Positions 8,399-63,493 of a DNA stretch of 64,000 nucleotides are shown here, piece after piece. How positions within the stretch are numbered: position 1 is the stretch's first letter; the number at the start of each line of letters is the position of its first letter. The translations under genes and the position numbers were made by a program. The notes under the pieces are model-generated. The model was not told the DNA's origin. It searched no databases and saw nothing but the letters and a program-made list of their open reading frames with translations. Origin of the DNA: a bacterium (lineage in GTDB: Bacteria > SAR324 > NAC60-12); assembly GCA_965205865.1 (NCBI GenBank), contig CBDBHR010000026.1, forward strand, positions 224,997-288,996. The letters run 5' to 3'.

Positions 8399-8456
8399 GG
8401 TTGGGATATTTAGGCGCCGTCAGACGAAAGGAGCGGAAACCAATAAGCCGAACCTA

Positions 8457-8560
8457 ATGCGAATTGTTAATTTTTATTTCTTGAACAAAATATTAGAAAT
8501 AGATCCTCATCATCCCTCTCTGAGGCTGCATCAATTGAAAGGTAAATTAAAAAATTTACA
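8457..8560 (+). pseudogene. RelE/YafQ-like toxin fragment cut by IS1380
   Basis: DPHHPSLRLHQLKGKLKNLH then reads into the IS terminal repeat. Confidence 0.6.
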
Positions 8561-10256
8561 CCTAAATCCTGCAATTGAATATTTTGATTGAGTTTCCCCC
8601 CACTCTTTGAGAGGTTTTTTTAAAAAAAAGGATTTGAGAGTTGAATTTCCATCAGTCCTTGCTCATAAAGGTTTTTCCGCCCTCCATTAGATCGTCATAT
8701 TTTGTGATGATCTGATACCCGCTTTCGCGGGCACAAGATTCAAGACGTACTTCTCCCTGGATTTGGGAATCTACATCTCAGCAAAATGTATCCACTGGAG
8801 TGAAACAAAGGATCCAGGTCTCTCCAACAGCGACCCATGCATCCCATTGAGCATTGTAAAGTGTTCTTTCCGGAACTCTCAGTTTTTGTTGACGAGCGCC
8901 ACTCGTCCATTTTCCTGCCATTCGGACAAGATAGGTGCGCATGGTGGCCGGTTCCCAACGGCGCAGTATTGCGTTACCACTACAAAGGGCCATCCAGCGC
9001 AGCGTGTTGTAAGCGAGTATCGCGCATTGGAACAAGGCACTGTTGGCCCAAAAATCGTCGGTTTTAATCTGAGCCAGCGCAGTTTGATTTTTTGCTTCCT
9101 CAATCCATGTCTCAGCGACCGCCCTTTGGCCATACTCTTTGTGAGCCTGCCAGGGAGTGAGCGCGTCAGTGAGAACATAACAAAAATAATCGTACTCCTT
9201 CATCTCAAAGAGGGTGGCCATCCCTTTGAGTTCCTCCTCTTTCTCCCTGCGTACGGCCATGAATTTTCTTGACCTCCTCCAAGTTTCACATTGGTGGGAA
9301 AACTCACACCCTTCCCAAGCGGGCTGCCCCTTCACTTTTTGCCATTTTTGGGTTTCCAACAACGAGACAAGCCCCTTGAGTTTGACCTTGATCAGATAGC
9401 CATGGCCTCGTTCTTCGAGGAAATCCAGCAAATCCCCCACAAAAAAACCACTGTCTCCACGAAACAGAGTGCGAGTCCGATTTGGAAGGTGAGCGAGAAG
9501 TTGCCGCATGAATTCAACGACTCCATTGCTGGTATAGGCACTCCCATCACGAAGCCAACCCTGAAGAATCTCCTTTGTCTCTGCGCAAAATGCCAGCAGA
9601 GGATGATACGAAGCTGCACCGCGTTTGTGGGGATTATATCCGACAGACACTCCTTGCTGCTTGCCGTAGGCCGTTTTCACAGTGGAGTCCACGTCAATCA
9701 CAAGACAGTGTAACACCCCAACGATGCTTGTCCCACTTCGAAGCGCCTTACGCCAGATACCGGCTCGAATCCGATGGTTCAAGCTCTCCATCTCATTGAT
9801 GTTTTTCTGTGTGAAAGTACGCAGTATCCGGCCGAATGTGGTTTCATCCGGAATCCTCAGCCAACCGGCCACACGACTCAAAACACGGTCGTTCCAAACT
9901 GTCACAATCGAACGAATCGAACGGGCGCCACCAACAATGCCGACCACCGACAAAATGACCATGTCCACCGCGTCATAAAGACCCGTGGCGCCACGCCGAT
10001 GATCTACGGTCTGCTCTGTCTTTGAAACAATCCCTTCTTTGTGAAAAAATTTGACAACCGGAATCAAGCCTGCTTGCGCGGTCAGGTCTCTGCCTCCCTG
10101 GCTGATATGGATGTTTTTTGCTGTCGTTCTTGCCGATCTTGCGCTACCTTTGTTTTTCATGGTAATGGTGATCTCTTAAAATGTTGATTCTGGTGTTAAC
10201 TATTTGAGTATATTACCATTTCCATGTTTGATTGTCATCTAATTGCAGGATTTAGG
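8561..10256 (-). mobile_element. IS1380-family insertion sequence, 1696 bp, 16-bp perfect TIR CCTAAATCCTGCAATT
   Basis: TIRs at 8561-8576 and 10241-10256 enclose the transposase; no target duplication seen. Confidence 0.9.
8778..10160 (-). CDS. IS1380-family DDE transposase, apparently intact, 460 aa
   Basis: VIDVDST, GYNPHKRG, FRGDSGF, YGQRAVAETWIEEAK. Confidence 0.9.
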   Translation of the reverse strand: MKNKGSARSARTTAKNIHISQGGRDLTAQAGLIPVVKFFHKEGIVSKTEQTVDHRRGATGLYDAVDMVILSVVGIVGGARSIRSIVTVWNDRVLSRVAGWLRIPDETTFGRILRTFTQKNINEMESLNHRIRAGIWRKALRSGTSIVGVLHCLVIDVDSTVKTAYGKQQGVSVGYNPHKRGAASYHPLLAFCAETKEILQGWLRDGSAYTSNGVVEFMRQLLAHLPNRTRTLFRGDSGFFVGDLLDFLEERGHGYLIKVKLKGLVSLLETQKWQKVKGQPAWEGCEFSHQCETWRRSRKFMAVRREKEEELKGMATLFEMKEYDYFCYVLTDALTPWQAHKEYGQRAVAETWIEEAKNQTALAQIKTDDFWANSALFQCAILAYNTLRWMALCSGNAILRRWEPATMRTYLVRMAGKWTSGARQQKLRVPERTLYNAQWDAWVAVGETWILCFTPVDTFC

Positions 10257-10420
10257 GCATACTCTATTTGATATGTGATTGCTTCGCAGAGTTTGTTTAA
10301 TGCCTCTTCAAAAGTATTCCCGAATCCCATCAGATTCATGGATAATGCTTTTGCATTCCATTTCCCATCTTTTTTTATTCCCAAAATTTGTATTGTTACT
10401 TCAAGATCCGTAACCTTCAT
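10257..10420 (-). pseudogene. HicB-like antitoxin fragment truncated by IS1380
   Basis: GKWNAKALSMNLMGFGNTFEEALNKLCEAI resembles the HicB N-domain; ORF runs into the TIR. Confidence 0.5.
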
Positions 10421-10614
10421 TTCACCCCCCTGCAAGTTAAAATTCATATTATCATGGCAATGCAAAAATTAACGCAATTGTAAACTTTTTAATACTTTGA
10501 TTAAGCCGCGATAGGTAAATCCGGTCTCCATCCTTTCAAACCTCTATTTATACATAATTCATTTTTCTAAAAAAGAAAATATTTAGGATAATTCAATTAA
10601 AAACAAAGAAGGGC

Positions 10615-10688
10615 GTCCGGGTAGAGCCAGTGGTTACCCAGCCAGCCAGCCCCCCCCCCCGCAGATCCGTACGTGAACAATTCGCTCA
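10615..10688 (-). mobile_element. Group II intron 3'-end remnant (partial domain V plus domain VI)
   Basis: Minus strand TGAGCGAATTGTTCACGTACGGATCTGCGGGG...GGTAACCACTGGCTCTACCCGGAC. Confidence 0.8.
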
Positions 10689-10724
10689 AAGAGAAAAATC
10701 AAATCAATGAGCAGCGAAAACATG

Positions 10725-10832
10725 GTCGTAATCCCTTCTCAAATCAGGTCAATTCACTCTCTGATAATGGTTTTTATAAAGCACATCGGATTTATGTGTC
10801 GTAATCCCTTCTCAAATCAGGTCAATTCACTC
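10725..10832 (-). CRISPR. Orphan CRISPR remnant: two identical 35-bp repeats and one 38-bp spacer, with a possible second 36-bp spacer at 10689-10724
   Basis: GTCGTAATCCCTTCTCAAATCAGGTCAATTCACTC at 10725-10759 and 10798-10832; reverse complement ends GGGATTACGAC like CRISPR repeat 3' ends; no cas genes in window. Confidence 0.72.
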
Positions 10833-10858
10833 ACTCAAAGAATACAGACCAATATCTA

Positions 10859-12564
10859 CCTAAATTGAGCGATTCTAAAAAAGGATCAGATTTTCAAGAT
10901 GATTTTTTTGCCTGAGAAAGGCAATCATTCTGAAATCAGATTTTGATCATCAAATCCATGGATGTTTGAGTGAGAATGAGCATCAATATGCTGTTTTCAG
11001 ATGTGGAAAGTCTTCATTTCTCATGTTTTGGACGCACTCATCCCCTTAAACTTTAATGTTTTTGTTTTTTAATTGAAGCGAAACCCGTTGATCAGATTGG
11101 CGCCAATGCATGCTGGCAGGTGGCAAATAGTTGGTCCAATTGCAAGCGCTCAAAGGTCGTTTTGGGTATTTTCAAGATCAGTTTTCCGGCATGACGAAGC
11201 AGTTTGCCTGCCGTATCAAGAAACTGGCGCCGGAAGGTATCAGCATACATCGTTACCGCAATCACTGGCTTGCTGACATCTTCTTTGAAGGCTTCGAAGA
11301 GGTTATTGCCAAGCAGCATCAGATAGTACCATGCGGTATTGGGAATGAAGTTCTTGAAGGGTAGTTGTTGATGACCAAAGTTTTTCAGCGCCCGGTTGGC
11401 CAGTTCATCCTTTCCCCGTCCGTGGTACGAGCCAAGGATGCTATGAGCATCGATGCGCTTTTCTTCAGCGGCTTGGCTGAGTTGGCCATCAATGGCCTCT
11501 CCCATACCAAGGTTCGTAATGATCACGCCATCATGATCCAAACCCGGCAAAGAGAGTTGGCTATCGTGTTCAATCAAGCGGCTGTAGATCGTGCGACGAG
11601 CCTTCTTCCATGTCCCCTGCTGGCTCTTAAACTCGGTGTACTGCCAGCTCCTTCTTGCCCGATGAAGTGAAGGTCCGCCAGTCAGTGGCTTCTTCCGCAG
11701 CATTCCTCACATTGGCATAGGACTTTCCTCCGCTTCAGCTAACCGATGTTCAGTCGTTCACAGGTTTCAAAGATTTTTTCGTCAAAAAAAGCGGCGTCCA
11801 TGCGCAGCATGATTGGTACATCATCTCGGTATTCGCGGCGAATCTTTTTCACGATATGAACCAGCATCTCCTGAACAGTTTTCCCGTGATTCGAATGTTT
11901 GCTACCTCCGCGAAAAACGGCGTCAACCATATAACGACCCCAATTCATCTGCAGGGGATGAAATCCTTTGACCATCATCAAGTACCATCGAATCCAGACC
12001 CAACACAATCACCGTTGGACAAGTCTTCTTCAGTCTCCGGATAAACAGAATCTGCAGCAGATGACGAAACAGGTAGACTCGTACAAAAGAGAACTTTCCA
12101 AAAAATCTTTTCACGGCATGCGAGGAGGCAAGGTCTTGCTCACTGTATGACAGCAACACGGCATAACCCTCATCCCTTTTGAGGTGATCGAACCAACTGA
12201 GATGACGGCTGCTGCCGTCCATGAAAAAACAGAGTATCTGCGCAAAGAAATCAGAGACCGCAATACCTTTTTTATTTTTACGCATCGAACCAAACATCCT
12301 TTCGATGATCGGCATCAGCCGAATACTTTACAGATACTGGGCAAACAAGGCCAATCCGGCACGACTTGTCAAGTGTTCATCGGTTGGTTGAATGGCATCA
12401 ATTACCTGTTTCTTTTTATCCTGAACTGCTATATCTTTTTCCATAAAGCTCTCTACCTGTTGGGTTGTGTTAGATTTTGTGAATGTTTTTATTTTAACCA
12501 CTGAAATATAACACATTTTCCCCAAGGTTGGGAGCTTTTTTTATTACGAATCGCTCAACTTAGG
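10859..12564 (-). mobile_element. Second IS1380-family element, degenerate, 1706 bp
   Basis: 17-bp TIRs CCTAAATTGAGCGATTC / GAATCGCTCAACTTAGG (one mismatch) enclose transposase fragments. Confidence 0.85.
11092..12525 (-). pseudogene. IS1380 transposase broken into at least four frames
   Basis: Fragments with LTSRAGLALF, LGLDSMVLD, LRMDAAFF, YHGRGKDELANRALK. Confidence 0.85.
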
Positions 12565-12627
12565 GATTCGTATTGCCATGATCAAAGTTCTCTTAGCGAA
12601 ATATATTATTTAACAAAACAGGTTCTT

Positions 12628-13992
12628 ATGGAAGTTGAAATTATCATCTTTGTCTTTGTGGTATCCGCCGTCAGTGTAGTCGCTGCGTTTCTGTTCGCAT
12701 TTCGATCACGCAACGAGGTTAAGGGTCTCATCGCCGATAAAGCCAAACTCGGCACCGAACTTGGATCCGTGACCAAGCAACTCAAGGAGGCATCCGCCGA
12801 GGCTGAAACGGCACGACAGTTGGAGGTACGCAAAGCGTCGCTTGAACAAGAGATCAAGAATGTAAACAACCAATTAGACGGATTGAAGGCTGACAAGTAT
12901 TCATCCGATATAAAAGTCGACAAATTGCAGGCCGAGATCCGAAGTGTAGATGCTGAGAAGACCGGGTTGGAGCGCGATCTGAAGAACATCAAGGAGCAAC
13001 TCGGTCAACGCGACGATCTTCAAAACATATTCAAAGACCAGTTCCAGTCACTGTCATCCGAAACACTCAAGAACCAGCATGATCAATTTATCCAGACTGC
13101 AAAACTCACTCTCAAACCACTCGCTGAAAAAGTCGACAAGCTGGACACGGAGTGGACTAAGACGTCGGGGGCATTCAATCAGCAGATCACGATGCTGGCA
13201 TCCGAAACGAAGACATTGTCGTCCGCACTGTCAAAGCCTCATTCGCAGGGGAAGTGGGGTGAGATGCAAGTTGAACGCGCTCTTCAACTTTCCGGTTTGG
13301 AACCAAGAATTCACTATGACACCCAGGAATCCGACAATCAGGGTGGCAGAACGGACTTCATAGTCCACTTGGCGCACAATCGGGACATCATCCTCGACTC
13401 CAAAGTTTCTTTGGTCGCGATTCTGGGTGCTGAACAGGCGGAAACCGAAGAGGACCGTGAACAATATCTGAATCAGCATGCCAAAAATGTCCAGATCCAC
13501 ATCGATGGTTTGAGTAAGAAAGAGTATTGGAATAACTTACCCGATAGCGCCGACTTTGTCGCTATGGTCATGCCTGAATTCGCCCTACCGCCGGCAGTGA
13601 TTCGCATACCGAACCTGCTTGATCGTGCGTTACAGAACAATGTAGTGGTAGTTACATACTCGATGCTGGTCGCACTGTTAAAATGCGTCGCAATGGGATG
13701 GCAGGAACGCAAAGTCGCTGATGAAGCGCGCAACATCAGCGTTCTTGGCAAAAATCTTCATGACCGTTTAGCTACTTTCGCTGAACACGTTGACGATATG
13801 GGACATGCGCTAGGCAAGGCAGTGGATAGTTACAACGCAGGGATTCGCTCGATGGAAACCCGACTTCTTCCTCAAGCCCGGAGGTTTAAAGAGTTAGGAG
13901 TGCCAACTGCGAAGGAATTGCCCGAGTTAGAACCAATAGACAAAGTACCGCAGGCGCTGAACTTCATTTCGCAAAACGGAAAAGAGAACTAA
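12628..13992 (+). CDS. rmuC: DNA recombination protein RmuC
   Basis: N-terminal TM and coiled coil, QGKWGEMQV, IILDSKVSL, LSKKEYW, DFVAMVMP. Confidence 0.88.
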   Translation: MEVEIIIFVFVVSAVSVVAAFLFAFRSRNEVKGLIADKAKLGTELGSVTKQLKEASAEAETARQLEVRKASLEQEIKNVNNQLDGLKADKYSSDIKVDKLQAEIRSVDAEKTGLERDLKNIKEQLGQRDDLQNIFKDQFQSLSSETLKNQHDQFIQTAKLTLKPLAEKVDKLDTEWTKTSGAFNQQITMLASETKTLSSALSKPHSQGKWGEMQVERALQLSGLEPRIHYDTQESDNQGGRTDFIVHLAHNRDIILDSKVSLVAILGAEQAETEEDREQYLNQHAKNVQIHIDGLSKKEYWNNLPDSADFVAMVMPEFALPPAVIRIPNLLDRALQNNVVVVTYSMLVALLKCVAMGWQERKVADEARNISVLGKNLHDRLATFAEHVDDMGHALGKAVDSYNAGIRSMETRLLPQARRFKELGVPTAKELPELEPIDKVPQALNFISQNGKEN

Positions 13993-14012
13993 TCCTAAAA
14001 TGGGGTCAGGCT

Positions 14013-14715
14013 ATGCGCCAGGAAAGCTGGCAAGAAATAGAGAGTGAAAGTCTCTTACTCGGTAAGGCAGTAACGACCTGCCGAGTCCCCGAGTCATGAG
14101 TGGTTATTCGCAAGGATAGGCGCTAAGCGTTGACAGGGGAGAACATAGGCTCGGTATTGAACTCCGAAATCATAGTTTCAGGCGCTGACCTTGTAGTCTG
14201 GTGGGGAAGGCAATAACAACCGAAGGCGTTAGCGTGAGTCTCGGCTGAGCCTGGCGGAGTCAAAGACCCGGTGCATGTGTGGAAGTTTCTTGATCGGAAC
14301 CTGGGAGATCCTGAGGATGACTGTCAACATTCCATTGGTAGTCGGATCGGGAAAATTAATAAATAACCCCGATATCTACGTCTTCAGGAAGTCGGACAAG
14401 TTCGTAGTAGCGATGAAGCGGCGAACAATGAGATCATTTGTAGAGAGTAACAATGCAAAGGAAATCAACGGAGCCTGTGGAGCAAAGGGACTTGGCTGAG
14501 AGGAATTCTGCTTGCCCTCCTGTGTTCGGAACTCAGAGGCCGGTAAAATCAGAGAGCGGTTTAAGCAGGGTGCGCCAAACGGCGAATCCGAATCAACGTT
14601 TGAGCGTCTGACTCGAAGCAGGAGCCGGATGCGTTAGCAGCGCACGTCCGGATCTGTACCGGAGGAATGATGAAAGGTGACTGAAAGTCACTATAAATCA
14701 GTTCTTTACGGTGAC
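14013..14715 (+). mobile_element. ORF-less group II intron (703 nt), derivative of the 61299 intron
   Basis: Aligns to 61299-63255 except for deletion of 61873-63126; begins ATGCG instead of GTGCG; keeps domains V and VI and ends GGTGAC. Confidence 0.9.
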
Positions 14716-15182
14716 GTGCGCCAGGAAAGCTGGCAAGAAATAGAGAGTGAAAGTCTCTTACTCGGTAAGGCAGTAACGACCCGCCGAGTCCCCGAGTCAT
14801 GAGTGGTTATTCGCAAGGATAGGCATAAAGATTTAGATGATTTAGAAAATTTACCCTAAGCGTTGACAGGGGAGAACATAGGCTCGGTATTGAGCTCCGA
14901 AATCATAGTTTCAGGCGCTGACCTTGTAGTCTGGTGGGGAAGGCAATATCAACCGAAGGCGTTAGCGTGAGTCCCGGTCGAGCCTGGCGGAGTCAAAGAC
15001 CCAGCGCATGTGTGGAAGTTTCTTGATCGGAAACTGGGAGATCCTGAGGATGACTGTCAACATTCCATTGGTAGTCGGATCGGGAAAATTAATAAATAAC
15101 CCCGATATCTACGTCTTCAGGAAGTCGGACAAGTTTGTAGTAGCGATGAAGCGGCGAACAATGAGATCATTTGTAGAGAGTA
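14716..15182 (+). mobile_element. Second tandem copy of the same intron, 5' part only, with a 31-nt AT-rich insert at 14825-14855
   Basis: GTGCGCCAGG starts immediately after the 3' end of copy 1; truncated just before the RT start codon. Confidence 0.88.
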
Positions 15183-15575
15183 ATCGGGATAGGAAGGGGG
15201 TTTTCTCCCCTCCCTCCCACAGCACCACTCATACGGGTCCGTAAGTGGCGCCTCGCCTACTATCAGGTAGAGGTATCTAAACGATACCAAGTGTCTACCG
15301 CGCCTTGGCGGGGTAATGAATCTTAATCCATAGATCACGCAAAGAAACCATTCCCTGTTTAGCAAGAAAGTCATCTGATAAGCCCCAGTTGGTTGCTTGC
15401 GTCCGAGAGAGTCGCCAGTATCCTTTTCGGCTGAGGCCAATACTAATGGACAGCTTTACATGAACTCCCAGCTTGATCAACTCTCGAATTTTCGTACGAG
15501 GTTTCCTCCATTGTTTGATGTAGGCCATACGAACCCGTCTTCGAAGCCATCCTTCCATCTCCACGATAGAATCGG
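15183..15575 (-). mobile_element. 3' half of a different, class C-like group II intron: maturase C-terminus plus domains V and VI
   Basis: EGWLRRRVRMAYIKQWRKP...KGYWRLS...LRDLW maturase tail; minus-strand end ...CCTTCCTATCCCGAT. Confidence 0.85.
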
Positions 15576-15615
15576 GGTCAGGCCTGTGACTTTGGGAATT
15601 TAAGTTCATATTTCC

Positions 15616-15665: not shown

Positions 15666-15815
15666 GTCGGACGGGGATGAAGGGATTGCCATCACCCTGG
15701 GTCAGCCCGAACTTTCAGCCTCATTCACAAGGAAAGGGGGAGAGATGAGATAAGGGAGTTAGAGTCGGGGAATGATTAATTATCCGCAGCGTGCGCTCAC
15801 GCTAACGCCAACACG

Positions 15816-16160
15816 TTGCTCGGCCTGATTATTGAGACTCCGGAGGCACTCGAGCACTTGGAGGAGATTCTCATCCCCGGGATAGACCTGGTCTGGGTAG
15901 GCCATACCGATCTCTCACACCTGCTGGGTATAGCCGGCCAGTTTGACCATCCCCAGATAACTGAAGCCAGAGACCACGTCCGTGCAATGTGCCAGAGGAA
16001 AGGTATAGCGTTCTGTCAGTGGGCTATACCGCCCACTGCAAGCCAGGTCAAATCATTGTTGGAGAGTGGCATTCGTTGGATAGGGTACGGAATGGATTTA
16101 TTGTTTCTGGAGCGTGAAGCGCGAAATGCGGTCGATGAGATCGCAGCTTGGCGCGGTTGA
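15816..16160 (+). pseudogene. HpcH/HpaI aldolase-family C-terminal fragment
   Basis: LIIETPEALEHLEEIL.PGID.VWVGHTDLS; N-terminus missing. Confidence 0.75.
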
Positions 16161-16168
16161 TGAGGTGA

Positions 16169-16462
16169 GTGAGGGGGGCAAGCAAAGGTGGAATTCTTTC
16201 GCTAACGAGGTCTATTGCCGTGTCTTATGCGGCACATAATATTCGTGCAAACACGATTTGCCCTGGAAGGATAGAAACCCCAATGACCGAGTGGATAAGA
16301 AGCGACCCGGAACGGAAAGAGGCTTATATGAAGAATGTTCCTTTATACAGAATAGCGCAACCGGTTGAGGTGGCTCGTCTAGCCTTATATCTGGCATCGG
16401 ATGAATCACCCCACGTAACCGGTACCATCATCCCCATCGATGGGGGATTGTCTGCAGTGTAG
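16169..16462 (+). pseudogene. Short-chain dehydrogenase C-terminal fragment
   Basis: GASKGG, IRANTICPG.IETPM, LASDES..VTG..IPIDGG; Rossmann N-terminus absent. Confidence 0.8.
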
Positions 16463-16519
16463 ATTAGGCTGGGACTGTTAGAGGTAAGAGCTGGAAAACC
16501 GCGGACTTAATAATTAGGT

Positions 16520-16663
16520 CGTTTATTTCTGGATTCACTCAAGGGCAGAGACTACCCGTTGGTCTCCGGAATCAACCTGCTCTTCGCCACTGCGGTGGTG
16601 GGGATCAATCTCATCATCGACCTGATTTATGCTTTCTTGGACCCCAGGGTTCGGTATAAATAG
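16520..16663 (+). pseudogene. ABC permease (DppB-type) C-terminal fragment
   Basis: RDYPLVSGINLLF...DLIYAFLDPRVRYK. Confidence 0.8.
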
Positions 16664-16766
16664 TCGCTGGCGCGACAAAGGTATTAGGTGTTAGGTTTCA
16701 GGTATTAGCGCAAAGCTGACACCGAATACCTTATACCTAAAAGCCTTCATCCTAAATACCTAAATT

Positions 16767-17736
16767 ATGAGCGACACCATAGAGACACTATCCCCCATCC
16801 GTGAGCTCAAGAGACGTAAAGGGCTGGCTGATTTCTTTATCAGGCTGTGGAAGGAGAAGCCTCTTGGTACTGCCTGCGGGATTATCATCTTGATCTTGAT
16901 TTTGGTGGCGATCTTTGCCGATGTGCTGGCGCCTTATCCCTATAAGGAAATGCACCTGATAGACAGGCTGCAGACCCCATCAGCCAAGTATCTGCTGGGG
17001 ACCGACCGGGGGGACGAGACTTACTCAGCCGCCTGATCTACGGGGCGCGTATCTCTGTACTTGTCGGCCTGGCCGCGACCACACTCAATTTGGTCATCGC
17101 TGTCCTCATCGGCGGCATTTCAGGATTCCTTGAGGGTAAAGTGGACCTGGCGGTCCAGCGCTTTGTCGATGCCTGGATCGCCTTTCCGGGACTGCTGTTG
17201 TTGTTGACCATCATGTCCGTCGTGGGACAGGGGTTGCTCCAGATCATCCTGGTGCTGGGGATCGCCGGTGGAGTCGAAGGCTCCCGCGTCGTGCGGGGTG
17301 CGGTGATCGCCATTAAAGAGAATGACTATTTTCTGGCAGCCCGGGCCGTGGGCACCTCGACAAGCCAAATCCTCAACCGTCATGTGCTGCCCAATATTAT
17401 GGCACCCGTCATCATTATCTTCTCCATTAACATCGGGGGGGGGTGATTATGACTTTGGCTTCTCTGGGCTTCCTCGGATACGGTCTGCCACCCAACATTC
17501 CTGACTGGGGCGGCATGCTCAGCCGGGAAGGGCGCCGGTACATGGAGATTGCCCCCTGGCTGGCGCTCTGGCCCGGTCTTTGCTTGACGATTGCCGTCTA
17601 CGCTCTCAACATGTTCGGCGACGCCATCAGAGACCTGCTCGATCCCCGGCTGCGGGGCGGACAAGGCAGTTACGGCACCACGGGGAAACGCAAACGCGGA
17701 TTCCTCGCCCGACTGATCAACCCTTTCAGATGGTAA
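16767..17736 (+). pseudogene. Peptide/nickel ABC permease (DppC-type), frameshifted near 17010 and 17440
   Basis: LLGTD..GRD motif and EAA-loop region split over three frames; indels lie in G runs. Confidence 0.85.
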
Positions 17737-17816
17737 GCGCACCAAAAATTGTAAAAATACTTGCTTAACTTTTTCCACAATGTTAAATCTTCATAGGTGT
17801 TCGGGATTTAAAAGGA

Positions 17817-28429: not shown

Positions 28430-28686
28430 AGTCCCTGAGGGACGAAAGAAAGTAGCCCAGCGATTTATCGCTGGGTACAAATGGCTCCTTCAAAGTCCCG
28501 GAGGGACGAAACAACAATGAGGTCTCATATCCCATGAAAACATAATCTTAAATATGATGAGTGTTATATTTTGCATTAATTCGCTCGACCGAAGAAGTGT
28601 CGTCTCTCTGGGACTAGCTGAGAGGAAGGGGGTTTCCTTACCCAGCAATGAATTGCTGGGCTATACCTTTTCGTCCCTCAGGGACT
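28430..28686. repeat. REP/MITE-like element with ~48-bp imperfect inverted arms; matching copy at 36113-36369
   Basis: AGTCCCTGAGGGACGAAA...CCCAGCGATTTATCGCTGGGTA with its inverted counterpart ending GTCCCTCAGGGACT. Confidence 0.8.
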
Positions 28687-36064: not shown

Positions 36065-36391
36065 TCGTTTTGCTACTGGTAAATATGGGTTTGAGATTCG
36101 TATGTAGGAAGAAGTCCCTGAGGGACGAAAGAAAGTAGCCCAGCGATTTATCGCTGGGTACAAATGGCTCCTTCAAAGTCCCGGAGGGACGAAACAACAA
36201 TGAGGTCTCATATCCCATGAAAACATAATCTTAAATATGATGAGTGTTATATTTTGCATTAATTCGCTCGACCGAAGAAGTGTCGTCTCTCTGGGACTAG
36301 CTGAGAGGAAGGGGGTTTCCTTACCCAGCAATGAATTGCTGGGCTATACCTTTTCGTCCCTCAGGGACTGTATCATAGAAAAATCGGGATC

Positions 36392-41145: not shown

Positions 41146-41264
41146 GGGGTCAGGCCTTTGATTATTTCATTTGACGTTTCATTCTTCAAATAAACTATCC
41201 CGGAGCAAGCTCTCTCGTTGAGGCTCGATTTTCGCTTCGCTCGAGCGGAGAATTTTGTCGGATT
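41146..41264 (+). repeat. 119-bp repeat beginning GGGGTCAGGCCTTTGATTA (unoccupied intron target); copy at 59757-59875
   Basis: Direct comparison shows only a few substitutions. Confidence 0.85.
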
Positions 41265-60823: not shown

Positions 60824-61298
60824 GTTTCCTCGAATCATCGTCAAACAATTTCGTCAATTTCTTTTTTGTTTCCATGCTTTTGTGACTTCAGATAATAAGT
60901 ACCTGAGCATAAGTTTTTACCCATTCCAACCCCACCGGAACGCCGGCCTCCTACCTCCCCTTGAATGCAAGCCCAGTTGAAAAAAGGGGAGGGACACGCT
61001 CCCCTCCTTGTTTAAGGAAGGGTTGGGGTGGTCCGGCATTCTGGAGGTCAGAAAGTAGCATCTAAAATGTTAAAAAACTTTTGGCCTAGTACTTAGGTAC
61101 TCTTTCCATAAAGTGACTCAATTTATCAGAAGTCCATTCGGGAATCAAATTTAATCTTATGATCCACGAAGGGCACGAAGGAAAGTATTATAGGTGCGCA
61201 CCCTAATTTACCGCGACTGGTCCATCCCCATTCCCTCATCAAATGATCGATTTTTCTGGGCTCCAAACTTTGGGAGGGGGTCAGGAGGGGGTCAGGCC

Positions 61299-63255
61299 GT
61301 GCGCCAGGAAAGCTGGCAAGAAATAGAGAGTGAAAGTCTCTTACTCGGTAAGGCAGTAACGACCCGCCGAGTCCCCGAGTCATGAGTGGTTATTCGCAAG
61401 GATAGGCGCTAAGCGTTGACAAGGGAGAACATAGGCTCGGTATCGAGCTCCGAAATCATAGTTTCAGGCGCTGACCTTGTGGTCTGGTGGGGAAGGCAAT
61501 ATCAACCGAAGGCGTTAGCGTGAGTCTCGGCTGAGCCTGGCGGAGTCAAAGACCCGGTGCATGTGTGGAAGTTTCTTGATCGGAACCTGGGAGATCCTAA
61601 AGACGACTGTCAACATTCCATTGGTAGTCGGATCGGGAAAATTTATAAATAACCCCGATATCTACGTCTTCAGGAAGTCGGACAAGTTCGTAGTAGCGAT
61701 GAAGCGGCGAACAATGAGATCATTTGTTGAGAGTAACAATGCAAAGGAAATCAACGGAGCCTGTGGAGCAAAGGGACTTGGCTGAGAGGAATTCTGCTTG
61801 CCCTCCTGTGTTCGGAACTCGGAGGCCGGTAAAATCAGAGAGCGGTTTAAGCAGGGTGCGCCAAAGGGCGAAGAGGACTCCCCATCTTCAATTCAACAAT
61901 CTCTTTCATCACATCAACCCTGACTTACTGCGGAGAGCTTACTTTGATCTCAATCGCAACTCAGCGGCGGGAGTGGACGAGGAGACCTGGAATGAGTATG
62001 GCATAAATCTCCTGGAGCGGATTAACGATCTGCACGGGAGGATCCACCAAGAACGTTATCGTCCTCAGCCTTCTCTGCGAGTGTGGGTTCCTAAACCGGA
62101 TGGCCGTCAAAGGCCAATCGGAATAGCCGCACTTGAAGACAAGATCGTACAACAAGCCCTCGTTTGGACGTTGGAATCGATCTATGAGGAGGATTTCCTT
62201 GGGTTTAGTTACGGGTTCCGACCCGGACGAAGCCAACATCAAGCCTTAGACGCTTTGTATGTGGCCATTACCCAACGGAAAGTGAGCTACATCTTAGATG
62301 CGGATATTCAAGGATTTTTCGACACAATTCAGCATGATTGGATGCTGAAATTTATCAAGCATCGAATCTCCGACAAAAGGATTCTGCGTTTAGTAGAGAA
62401 AACGTTGCGCGCCGGAGTCATCGAAGATGGGAAGTGGTCTGAAACGGTGGTCGGAACACCACAAGGTTCGGTAGTTTCTCCAATCTATTCAAATATCTAC
62501 CTGCACTATGTTTTAGATCTATGGGTCAATCAATGGAGAAGGCGGGAAGCTCGGGGGGAAGTTTACATCATTCGCTATGCGGATGATTTCGTCGTGGGTT
62601 TTCAATATTCTGAAGATGGCCAGAAATTTAATCGCCAACTAAGAGAACGCCTCTCTCAATTTGGACTGACTTTACATGAAGAGAAAACACGCCTCATCGA
62701 GTTCGGGCGATTTGCCGCCGATAACCGGGAAAAACAAGGTCTGGGAAAACCGGAAAGTTTCGACTTTTCAGGATTCACTCATGTCTGTGACACTCGGATA
62801 AAGGATGGAAAATTCAAGCTCACCCGTCTCACCATTTCCAAAAGGTTGCGAAAGAAGCTCAAAGAGATCAAACTTGAAGCGAAACGCAAACGTCATGAAA
62901 ATGCGCATGAACAAGGAAAATGGCTCAGGTCTGTTTTAAACGGTCTGTACAACTACTATGGAGTCCCCGGCAACCGGAGTTCCTTGAATGCTTTTCGCAC
63001 GGAAATCCATCGGACGTGGTTCAAATCACTAAGACGGAGGAGTCACAAAGCAAAGAGGATGAACTGGGAACGCTTCAAAGTACTGGTCAAACTACACATT
63101 CCTTCTGTAAGGACAACCCACCCGTATCCGAATCAACGTTTGAGCGTCTGACTCGAAGCAGGAGCCGGATGCGTTAGCAGCGCACGTCCGGATTTGTACC
63201 GGAGGAATGACGAAAGGTGGCTGGAAACCTCTATAAGTCAGTTCTTTACGGTGAC
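61299..63255 (+). mobile_element. Complete group II intron (IIB-like, no endonuclease domain), 1957 nt
   Basis: 5' GTGCG, domain V GAGCCGGATGCG...CGCACGTCCGG, 3' GGTGAC; removing it restores GGGGTCAGGCC|TTTGATTA. Confidence 0.93.
61739..63151 (+). CDS. ltrA: Group II intron reverse transcriptase/maturase
   Basis: SAAGVD, PKPDGRQRPIGI, SYGFRPGRS, DADIQGFFD, GTPQG, RYADD, maturase X domain. Confidence 0.95.
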   Translation: MQRKSTEPVEQRDLAERNSACPPVFGTRRPVKSESGLSRVRQRAKRTPHLQFNNLFHHINPDLLRRAYFDLNRNSAAGVDEETWNEYGINLLERINDLHGRIHQERYRPQPSLRVWVPKPDGRQRPIGIAALEDKIVQQALVWTLESIYEEDFLGFSYGFRPGRSQHQALDALYVAITQRKVSYILDADIQGFFDTIQHDWMLKFIKHRISDKRILRLVEKTLRAGVIEDGKWSETVVGTPQGSVVSPIYSNIYLHYVLDLWVNQWRRREARGEVYIIRYADDFVVGFQYSEDGQKFNRQLRERLSQFGLTLHEEKTRLIEFGRFAADNREKQGLGKPESFDFSGFTHVCDTRIKDGKFKLTRLTISKRLRKKLKEIKLEAKRKRHENAHEQGKWLRSVLNGLYNYYGVPGNRSSLNAFRTEIHRTWFKSLRRRSHKAKRMNWERFKVLVKLHIPSVRTTHPYPNQRLSV

Positions 63256-63307
63256 TTTGATTATTTGATTAGGAATGAGTCCAGTTTTTTTGCCCCCATT
63301 TCATTTA

Positions 63308-63493
<186 letters not shown>

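Follow-up and report, generated by a model that had tools for sequence, protein, structure and literature searches.

An ORF-less group II intron copy downstream of rmuC belongs to a family of deletion derivatives that was probably mobilised in trans

The window, that is, the whole stretch of 64,000 nucleotides analysed here, carries downstream of the rmuC gene a copy of a group II intron that has lost its reverse transcriptase (RT) gene. This 703-nt copy, here referred to as mini-1, belongs to an endonuclease-less family of bacterial group II introns, and a full-length, RT-encoding member of the family is found in the same window. The features are as follows, with the strand in brackets:

12628-13992 (+): rmuC, encoding a DNA recombination protein (Pfam RmuC, E = 1.2e-68)
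14002-14012 (+): 5′ exon homing motif GGGGTCAGGCT, found by motif scan, with TCAGGCT as IBS1
14013-14715 (+): mini-1, the ORF-less intron copy with deletion junction type A
14047-14269 (+): core of domain 1 (D1) of mini-1 (Rfam RF02005, 159.3 bits, E = 6e-46; gathering score, 49)
14195-14201 (+): candidate EBS1, AGUCUGG, in a D1 hairpin loop according to the Rfam structure line, pairing with exon positions -7 to -1
14586/14587 (+): junction A, reading GGCGAA/TCCGAATC, within the hairpin at 14576-14602
14622-14655 (+): domain 5 (D5), identical to that of the full-length copy except for C/T at 14654
14660-14715 (+): domain 6 (D6), predicted fold with a bulged branch A at 14708 and the 3′ end GAC
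14716-15183 (+): second intron copy, mini-2 (RF02005, 139 bits), truncated at intron position 438
14825-14855 (+): 31-nt patch in D1 of mini-2, seen as an alignment gap; the identical string occurs at 1810-1843 of locus L019
15184-15573 (-): 5′-truncated 3′ part of an unrelated group II intron (maturase C terminus plus D5-D6), abutting the break in mini-2
15574-15600 (+): unoccupied homing site GGGGTCAGGCC/TGTGACTTTGGG, found by motif scan
61299-63255 (+): full-length copy of 1957 nt with the ends GTGCG and GGTGAC and an intact 470-amino-acid RT ORF at 61739-63151

The rmuC gene is not interrupted, and mini-1 sits in its 3′ flank. In agreement with the preliminary description, the 5′ exon motif GGGGTCAGGC was found at 14002-14011, 10 nt past the rmuC stop codon. 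The closest rmuC outside the source organism shares merely 53-55% identity with this gene, and a sparse RNA contig covers 13582-13759 within it. Just upstream of rmuC, the region at 8400-12600 holds two high-copy insertion sequences, whose Logan depth was approximately 165-360 in run X1 and up to approximately 2000 in X10, compared with 5-10 for sequence present once; the DDE transposase ORFs, at 11092-12315, are no longer intact.

Comparison with the full-length copy bore out the earlier proposal that mini-1 equals the intron starting at 61299 minus 1254 nt. The missing block corresponds to 61873-63126, or 418 codons of the RT ORF, and 703 plus 1254 nt gives the 1957 nt of the full intron. 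Positions 14014-14586 matched intron positions 2-574 with 97.7% identity, and positions 14583-14715 matched positions 1825-1957 with 93% identity (BLASTN and MAFFT). The other RNA segments, namely D1-D3, the start of D4, D5, and D6, are all retained, as had been stated. The D1 fold is present, the RF02005 score of mini-1 being close to that of the full copy (158.5 bits). D5 scored 31.6 bits against RF00029, which is under the gathering score of 40; the 36-nt D5 core is conserved exactly in unrelated bacteria, and a search with the D5 pattern matched only unrelated bacteria. The distal hairpin of D6 carries a five-base variant that, in our variant table, is common only to mini-1 and to mini-2 of another assembly (L016), which marks mini-1 as a mosaic.

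The ORF was deleted from D4, and its terminal remnants were kept together with the 5′ part of D4, a feature also known from the TeI3 introns considered below. The remnants form the 52-amino-acid fused ORF at 14453-14611 (+) that had been noted, which joins the first 44 codons of the RT gene to the last 8 and coincides with the retained 5′ part of D4. This part of D4 is usually bound by the RT of a group II intron. The earlier emphasis on a precise in-frame deletion turned out not to be meaningful: of the two other deletion junctions found in this family, B leaves an out-of-frame ORF of 57 amino acids (P0269) and C gives an unrelated ORF of 79 amino acids (P0270). The reading frame is irrelevant, and the in-frame 52-amino-acid ORF is accidental, not being conserved in copies with junction B or C. 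Exact look-ups of this ORF, of a 74-amino-acid ORF, and of the rmuC translation of the window found no record.

The first base of mini-1 is indeed A rather than G, and the intron starts with AUGCG at the place of the group II consensus GUGYG, while all other sampled copies start with GUGCG. The exon/intron junction reads GGCT/ATGCG at mini-1 versus GGCC/GTGCG at the full copy, exon position -1 being T and not C.

Downstream, mini-2 begins on the base directly after the last C of mini-1. The two are copies of the same intron arranged head to tail, and they lie end to end and are not nested as in a twintron. The preliminary description had given mini-1 its own site right after rmuC; the position after rmuC stands, but the site is shared with mini-2, whose presence at 14716 leaves mini-1 without a normal 3′ exon. 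Mini-2 breaks off just short of the ORF start. The 31-nt patch in its D1 equals the 3′ terminus of a small gene (encoding a product with the C terminus HKDLDDLENLP) that adjoins another ORF-less copy in L019, and its appearance suggests either a templated insertion flanked by microhomology or a double deletion. The break in mini-2 abuts the fragment of the unrelated intron, whose D5-D6 was recognized by RF00029 (38.7 bits, E = 1e-5, 15253-15183, minus strand) and whose maturase remnant showed 52-58% identity to annotated group II RT/maturases in a tblastn search; a Pfam search of the remnant gave no match. The Logan depth of this fragment was approximately 31 versus approximately 5, which suggests that it is multi-copy too. 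The homing site at 15574, empty in the window, holds a family intron in other strains, since a loose end in run X6 reads GTCAGTTCTTTACGGTGA before 15584, and this presence/absence polymorphism indicates recent mobility. The TGTGAC at 15585 was also considered as a solo remnant of an excised intron and rejected, as the X6 contigs show it to be the 3′ exon of the occupied site.

The 5′ exons of 17 copies were compared to define the target. All of them carry TCAG at positions -7 to -4 (TCGG in one), and the variation is found at -5 (A/G), -3 (mostly G/A), -2 (C/U), and -1 (C/T). The candidate EBS1 of mini-1, assigned from its place in the D1 hairpin loop, is complementary to UCAGGCU at 14006-14012, with A14195 predicted to pair with exon T14012, and the exon variants at -5, -3, and -2 all fit pairing or wobble with it. 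The putative EBS1 of the family would accordingly be (A/G)GUCUGG, reading the motif GGGGTCAGGC(C/T). At intron position 183, mini-1 and the ORF-less copy of L031, both at GGCT sites, have A, and most copies at GGCC sites have G; the exception, a copy in L027 with 183A at a GGCC site, makes the covariation of EBS1 with exon position -1 imperfect. An alternative EBS1, GCCUGG at 14250, was rejected, as the Rfam structure line places this segment in a helix. The T at exon position -1 is a natural target variant and not a mutation, and GGCT sites carry other copies with a normal G1 (the full copy of L015 and the ORF-less copy of L031). The 38-mer GGGTCAGGCT/GTGCGCC had a high depth in X10. Since recognition is confined to bases of the 5′ exon, a site can still be targeted after an intron has filled it. 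In line with this, two full-length copies stand in exact tandem in L024 (9561-11517 and 11518-13476). The usual 3′ exon base of the family is T, and the base that follows the 3′ splice site of mini-1 is G. Unoccupied GGGGTCAGGCC motifs elsewhere in the window were seen at 41146, 59757, 60287 (-), 63315 (-), and 63332 (-), those at 41146 and 59757 lying at the beginning of a repeat that the two places share over at least 120 nt.

Three deletion junctions were distinguished in the family. The endpoints of junction A share only an imperfect 4-nt homology (CGAA versus CGTA). In the P0002 subfamily, AATCCGAATC was considered as a direct repeat bordering the deletion on either side and was rejected, as the full-length sequences there read GAGGAACCCCAATCTT. 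In the predicted folds, junction A lies in the 15-nt loop of a CAAACG/CGUUUG stem, while the loop at junction B is GCAA. Junction B, GCCAAACGG/CAACGTTTGAGCG, is junction A minus 11 nt, and its D4 is closed by the GCAA-capped hairpin. Junction A keeps 4 nt of the left parental sequence and 7 nt of the right one that are missing from B, and A therefore cannot derive from B. Both have the nearby C568 variant in common, and their breakpoints are 4 nt (left) and 7 nt (right) apart, which fits a single ancestral deletion. In the most parsimonious history, a single deletion at the foot of the helix produced A, and an 11-nt trim then turned it into B, the form that spread. Junction C (GGTTTAA/AAGGACAACCC) is independent and was found at a canonical site with perfect GTGCG and GAC ends in L020/L021.

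Junction B occurs at at least five distinct sites with different flanks, namely in mini-1 and mini-2 of L016, in two copies of L019, in L027 (minus strand), and in L031, and a breakpoint shared among several sites is therefore clear for this form. For junction A, the genome-wide count of identical junctions that the preliminary description had suggested gave a mixed answer: in assemblies it is found only at rmuC (the window and L015), but read depth points to about two copies in a related strain. No contig spanning junction A was found in runs X1, X2, X4, and X6. A-specific contigs were present in X10 (depth, 14), X18 (depth, 23.8), and X29, all of which lack this rmuC; with single-copy depths of approximately 6-10 in X10 and 10-12 in X18, the A contigs have about twice the single-copy depth, which places junction A at other loci in a related strain. 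The junction patterns were absent from the genome-contig and metagenome-contig collections searched, among which the source organism is not included.

To estimate the size of the family, junction-specific k-mer depths were referred to a single-copy depth of approximately 4.5-8; all copy numbers are thus k-mer depths from metagenomes that hold more than one strain. The intron had a depth of approximately 160 in X1 against a single-copy depth of 4.5-7, or about 30 family copies per genome. Logan contigs of 52-59 nt specific for junction B reached depths of 103.6 (X1), 151.4 (X4), and 171.6 (X6), and the right junction of the full-length form reached 69.5, 66.6, and 104.2, respectively. Relative to the single-copy depth of X1, copies with junction B (approximately 15-23 per genome) outnumber RT-encoding ones (approximately 10-15). 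The runs in which this region was found are sponge associated.

Intact RT genes related to the ORF-less copies are not scarce. The gene at 61739-63151 lies in the same genome, its intact 470-amino-acid RT is found on ENA contig ERZ25069059:contig_141, and intact, identical RT genes were found at at least eight sites. The RT falls into two clusters at 90% identity, P0001 (40 distinct members) and P0002 (41 distinct members), many of them truncated. Among PDB entries, it scored 143-157 bits against IIC-type RTs and 131-134 bits against TeI4h/LtrA, scores that are indecisive as to class. The full-length copies that encode RT P0122 have identical ribozyme parts at at least eight sites (among L022-L031), which points to a very recent burst. 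Copies with junction B differ mutually by 1.3-5%, as opposed to the full-length subfamily that is identical at many sites, and the ORF-less expansion thus looks older than the latest autonomous burst. Judged from this divergence, the ORF-less wave may be old and no longer active. The full-length intron of the window is inserted in the left arm of a palindromic element of about 85 nt (61287-61298 and 63256-63345) with perfect 20-nt inverted ends, GGGGGTCAGGCCTTTGATTA and TAATCAAAGGCCTGACCCCC, which resembles a MITE or REP-like repeat and likewise flanks copies in L015, L020, and L023.

Orthologous loci were reached via the rmuC protein P0149, listed at 100% identity in L015, L016, L017, and L019, several of the loci being on contigs of low coverage (2x-7x). 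In all four, GGGGTCAGGCT/ATGCGCC lies directly 3′ of rmuC, and the same arrangement of rmuC and an intron with A1 was seen in Logan contigs of four runs; given its presence in four of four independent assemblies, the change from G1 to A is fixed at the rmuC locus. The copies differ in other respects. L015 has junction A like the window, with a 3′ flank that differs from that of the window and is canonical. In L016 and L017, a complete ORF-less mini-2 adjoins mini-1 exactly and has a normal 3′ exon behind it, both copies having junction B; the two partners in L016 differ at 25 of 691 positions (3.6%), which argues for two separate insertions and against a local duplication. In L019, mini-1 has junction B, and a second copy with junction B lies at its own site 870 nt downstream. 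None of the strains compared had a full-length copy behind rmuC. Depending on the strain, the orthologous copy at this site thus carries A or B as its junction, with only two other differences, a switch that needs gene conversion or recurrent loss of the 11 nt and that is best explained by gene conversion from the numerous B copies. Recombination between intron copies has clearly rearranged the rmuC locus. Within mini-2 of L016 (10477-11387), and also in L017, we noted a nested insertion of approximately 911 nt that starts with GTGAGC and has a weak match to group II D1 (RF02003, E = 3e-5) and no D5 match; it may represent an ORF-less intron from a different family.

The anatomy of the copies, their distribution over many sites and in many copies, the tandem junction, and the intact helper RTs are direct observations. 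The account that we favor, at a probability of about 0.7 for all its parts together, is that mini-1 comes from an ORF-less deletion derivative, that this derivative spread with RT supplied in trans, and that the tandem arose by re-homing into an occupied site. The 1254-nt deletion would have removed the D4b loop between the short complementary segments CAAACG and CGUUUG and would have spared, besides the ribozyme domains, the 5′ segment of D4, which holds the ribosome-binding site and start codon as well as the first 44 codons of the ORF. The resulting lineage, unable to make RT, would then have multiplied chiefly as junction B, 11 nt shorter and capped by a GCAA tetraloop, with splicing and retrohoming performed in trans by RT from full-length copies, for which the copy at 61299-63255 is a candidate helper. 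As the lineage has no RT of its own and yet multiplied, the RT was probably supplied in trans, and by analogy to Thermosynechococcus elongatus, trans mobilization is the best explanation for its spread. At a site already filled, the incoming copy would insert between the exon and the resident intron and produce a head-to-tail pair, and mini-2 would accordingly be the earlier and mini-1 the later arrival at 14716 and 14013, respectively.

A competing account is in-situ decay, in which a full-length intron homed after rmuC and lost its ORF locally to give junction A, the same copy was changed to junction B in other strains by gene conversion from B copies, and the copy was never mobile as an ORF-less intron. 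The restriction of junction A to the rmuC locus in assemblies and its absence from the contigs of X1, X2, X4, and X6 would be expected in this case, as would the fixed change from G1 to A and the near identity of the orthologous copies that carry A or B. Nevertheless, we consider this account unlikely. A-specific contigs occur at about twice the single-copy depth in runs without this rmuC allele, the C568 variant and the neighboring breakpoints of A and B fit one ancestral deletion, and none of the strains compared has a full-length copy at the rmuC site. The tandem itself might alternatively stem from local duplication or from unequal recombination between dispersed copies instead of a second retrohoming. 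The locus is recombinogenic: the 3′ flanks of mini-1 differ among L015, L016, L019, and the window, mini-1 of the window bears the D6 variant of mini-2 of L016, and a patch of a neighboring gene lies within mini-2. Against this stand the base-exact tandem junction (GGTGAC/GTGCGCC), the lack of a flanking repeat that could drive a duplication, the 3.6% divergence of the partners, the same exact junction between the two full-length copies of L024, and the experimental demonstration of tandem re-homing (PMC12584367), and this origin appears less probable still than in-situ decay. Finally, a highly repeated family, several loci of which come from 2x-7x contigs, invites collapsed or chimeric repeats in metagenome assemblies. 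Yet two assemblies made independently contain junction A, several contain junction B, which short-read Logan contigs from many runs show as well, and the junction of rmuC with A1 is present in four runs, which makes an assembly artefact very improbable.

Under the favored account of an ORF-less derivative mobilized in trans, the lineage and the individual copy have to be kept apart. The idea of a non-autonomous, ORF-less mini-intron mobilized in trans, put forward in the preliminary description, holds for the lineage, which has junction B at at least five sites and intact RTs in the same genome, but it probably does not hold for mini-1 as it now stands. Indeed, mini-1 comes close to being the lone carrier of its junction and unable to splice: in assemblies, A is found only at rmuC and A1 throughout, but about two A copies are present in a related strain. 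As judged from its sequence, mini-1 is most likely an inactive relic now. It is probably dead in view of the A1 at its 5′ splice site, the G in place of the usual T after its 3′ splice site, the truncation of its partner mini-2 against an unrelated intron fragment, and the recombinant mosaic at its 3′ end. Mutants of G1 reportedly splice slowly, with the second step impaired (Peebles 1993; Chanfreau and Jacquier 1993). Moreover, mini-1 interrupts no gene, and its splicing is therefore under no selection. The RNA runs gave sparse contigs and no ligated-exon reads and were too sparse to inform on splicing. Two contigs at loose ends in X1, at window position 14717, read GGGGTCAGGCC, then A, and then TGCGCC, so that A1 is present at one or more further loci; as the exon/intron junction is a CpG, a recurrent change of G to A is possible.

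The closest known parallel is provided by the ORF-less TeI3 introns of T. elongatus, which are mobilized by RTs of related introns (Mohr et al. 2010, PMC2882425). In both systems, the ORF was lost from D4b apart from remnants of its N- and C-terminal ends, the successful form has a second small deletion, many copies with identical breakpoints occupy different, mostly intergenic sites, ORF-less copies outnumber RT-encoding ones, and related intact RTs are encoded in the same genome (PMC2882425). The present family differs in its RT/ribozyme lineage and in its host, an uncultured sponge-associated bacterium, and it has three junction types (A, B, and C) instead of one and head-to-tail tandems instead of twintrons. 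Its target is a short repeated motif, located in part within a palindromic repeat element. Furthermore, mobilization in trans was shown for TeI3 and is proposed here from sequence comparison.

The tandem arrangement has a counterpart in a delta-ORF intron that integrates in tandem upstream of a resident copy, as delta-ORF forms do more often than full-length ones (PMC12584367). As in our arrays, the second copy is inserted behind the 5′ exon and directly ahead of the resident's first G, giving an exact junction of the 3′ end with GTGCG. That study used an engineered Escherichia coli assay with a IIB1 intron, in which a U at EBS3 pairs with the G of the resident; in contrast, the arrays found here are natural, and the usual 3′ exon base is T. 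Other ORF-less bacterial and archaeal group II introns (Simon et al. 2008, RNA 14:1704, as cited in PMC12584367), the dnaN introns of Trichodesmium, and the nested arrays of Methanosarcina (both as cited in PMC2882425) are similarly non-autonomous, dependent on the RT of a relative, and clustered or nested with related introns. Unlike mini-1, which interrupts nothing, the Trichodesmium introns lie within an essential gene and have to be spliced.

All the elements seen here are therefore precedented, namely RT-dependent ORF-less derivatives, trimming of D4, tandem re-homing, and clustering with other introns, and the locus reveals no new mechanism. What is new is the host and the intron lineage, and the set of deletion variants is well resolved. 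ORF-less introns that use the RT of a relative are a favored model for the path from self-sufficient to spliceosomal-type introns, and they also model the transition from autonomous to non-autonomous retroelements. To this, the locus adds a natural example from a sponge symbiont with several deletion variants and a likely two-step path, together with exact tandem arrays and presence/absence polymorphism between strains. Tentatively, and with somewhat less than even odds, the copy with junction A may represent a preserved transitional stage in the origin of a family of non-autonomous retroelements: loss of the D4b loop at the base of a short helix would have come first and the 11-nt trim to a GNRA-capped D4 second, B would have outgrown its autonomous parents by about 1.5-2 to 1 and spread via the repeated motif, and re-homing would have built the tandem arrays. 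If this were true, the family would be the second natural system after T. elongatus for the coevolution of ORF-less introns with a "driver" RT.

Two further observations concern the rest of the window. Many paralogous clusters of a peptide-type ABC transporter are present, one downstream of the introns at 15800-17800 and repeats at about 29000, 36700, 47500, 49000, and 58500; the copy next to the intron nest consists of partial ORFs with aldolase and SDR fragments and a frameshifted permease. In addition, four matches to the Acido-Lenti-1 RNA (46-50 bits) were found at 28430-28475, 28641-28686, 36113-36158, and 36324-36369, in the two copies of a duplicated segment.
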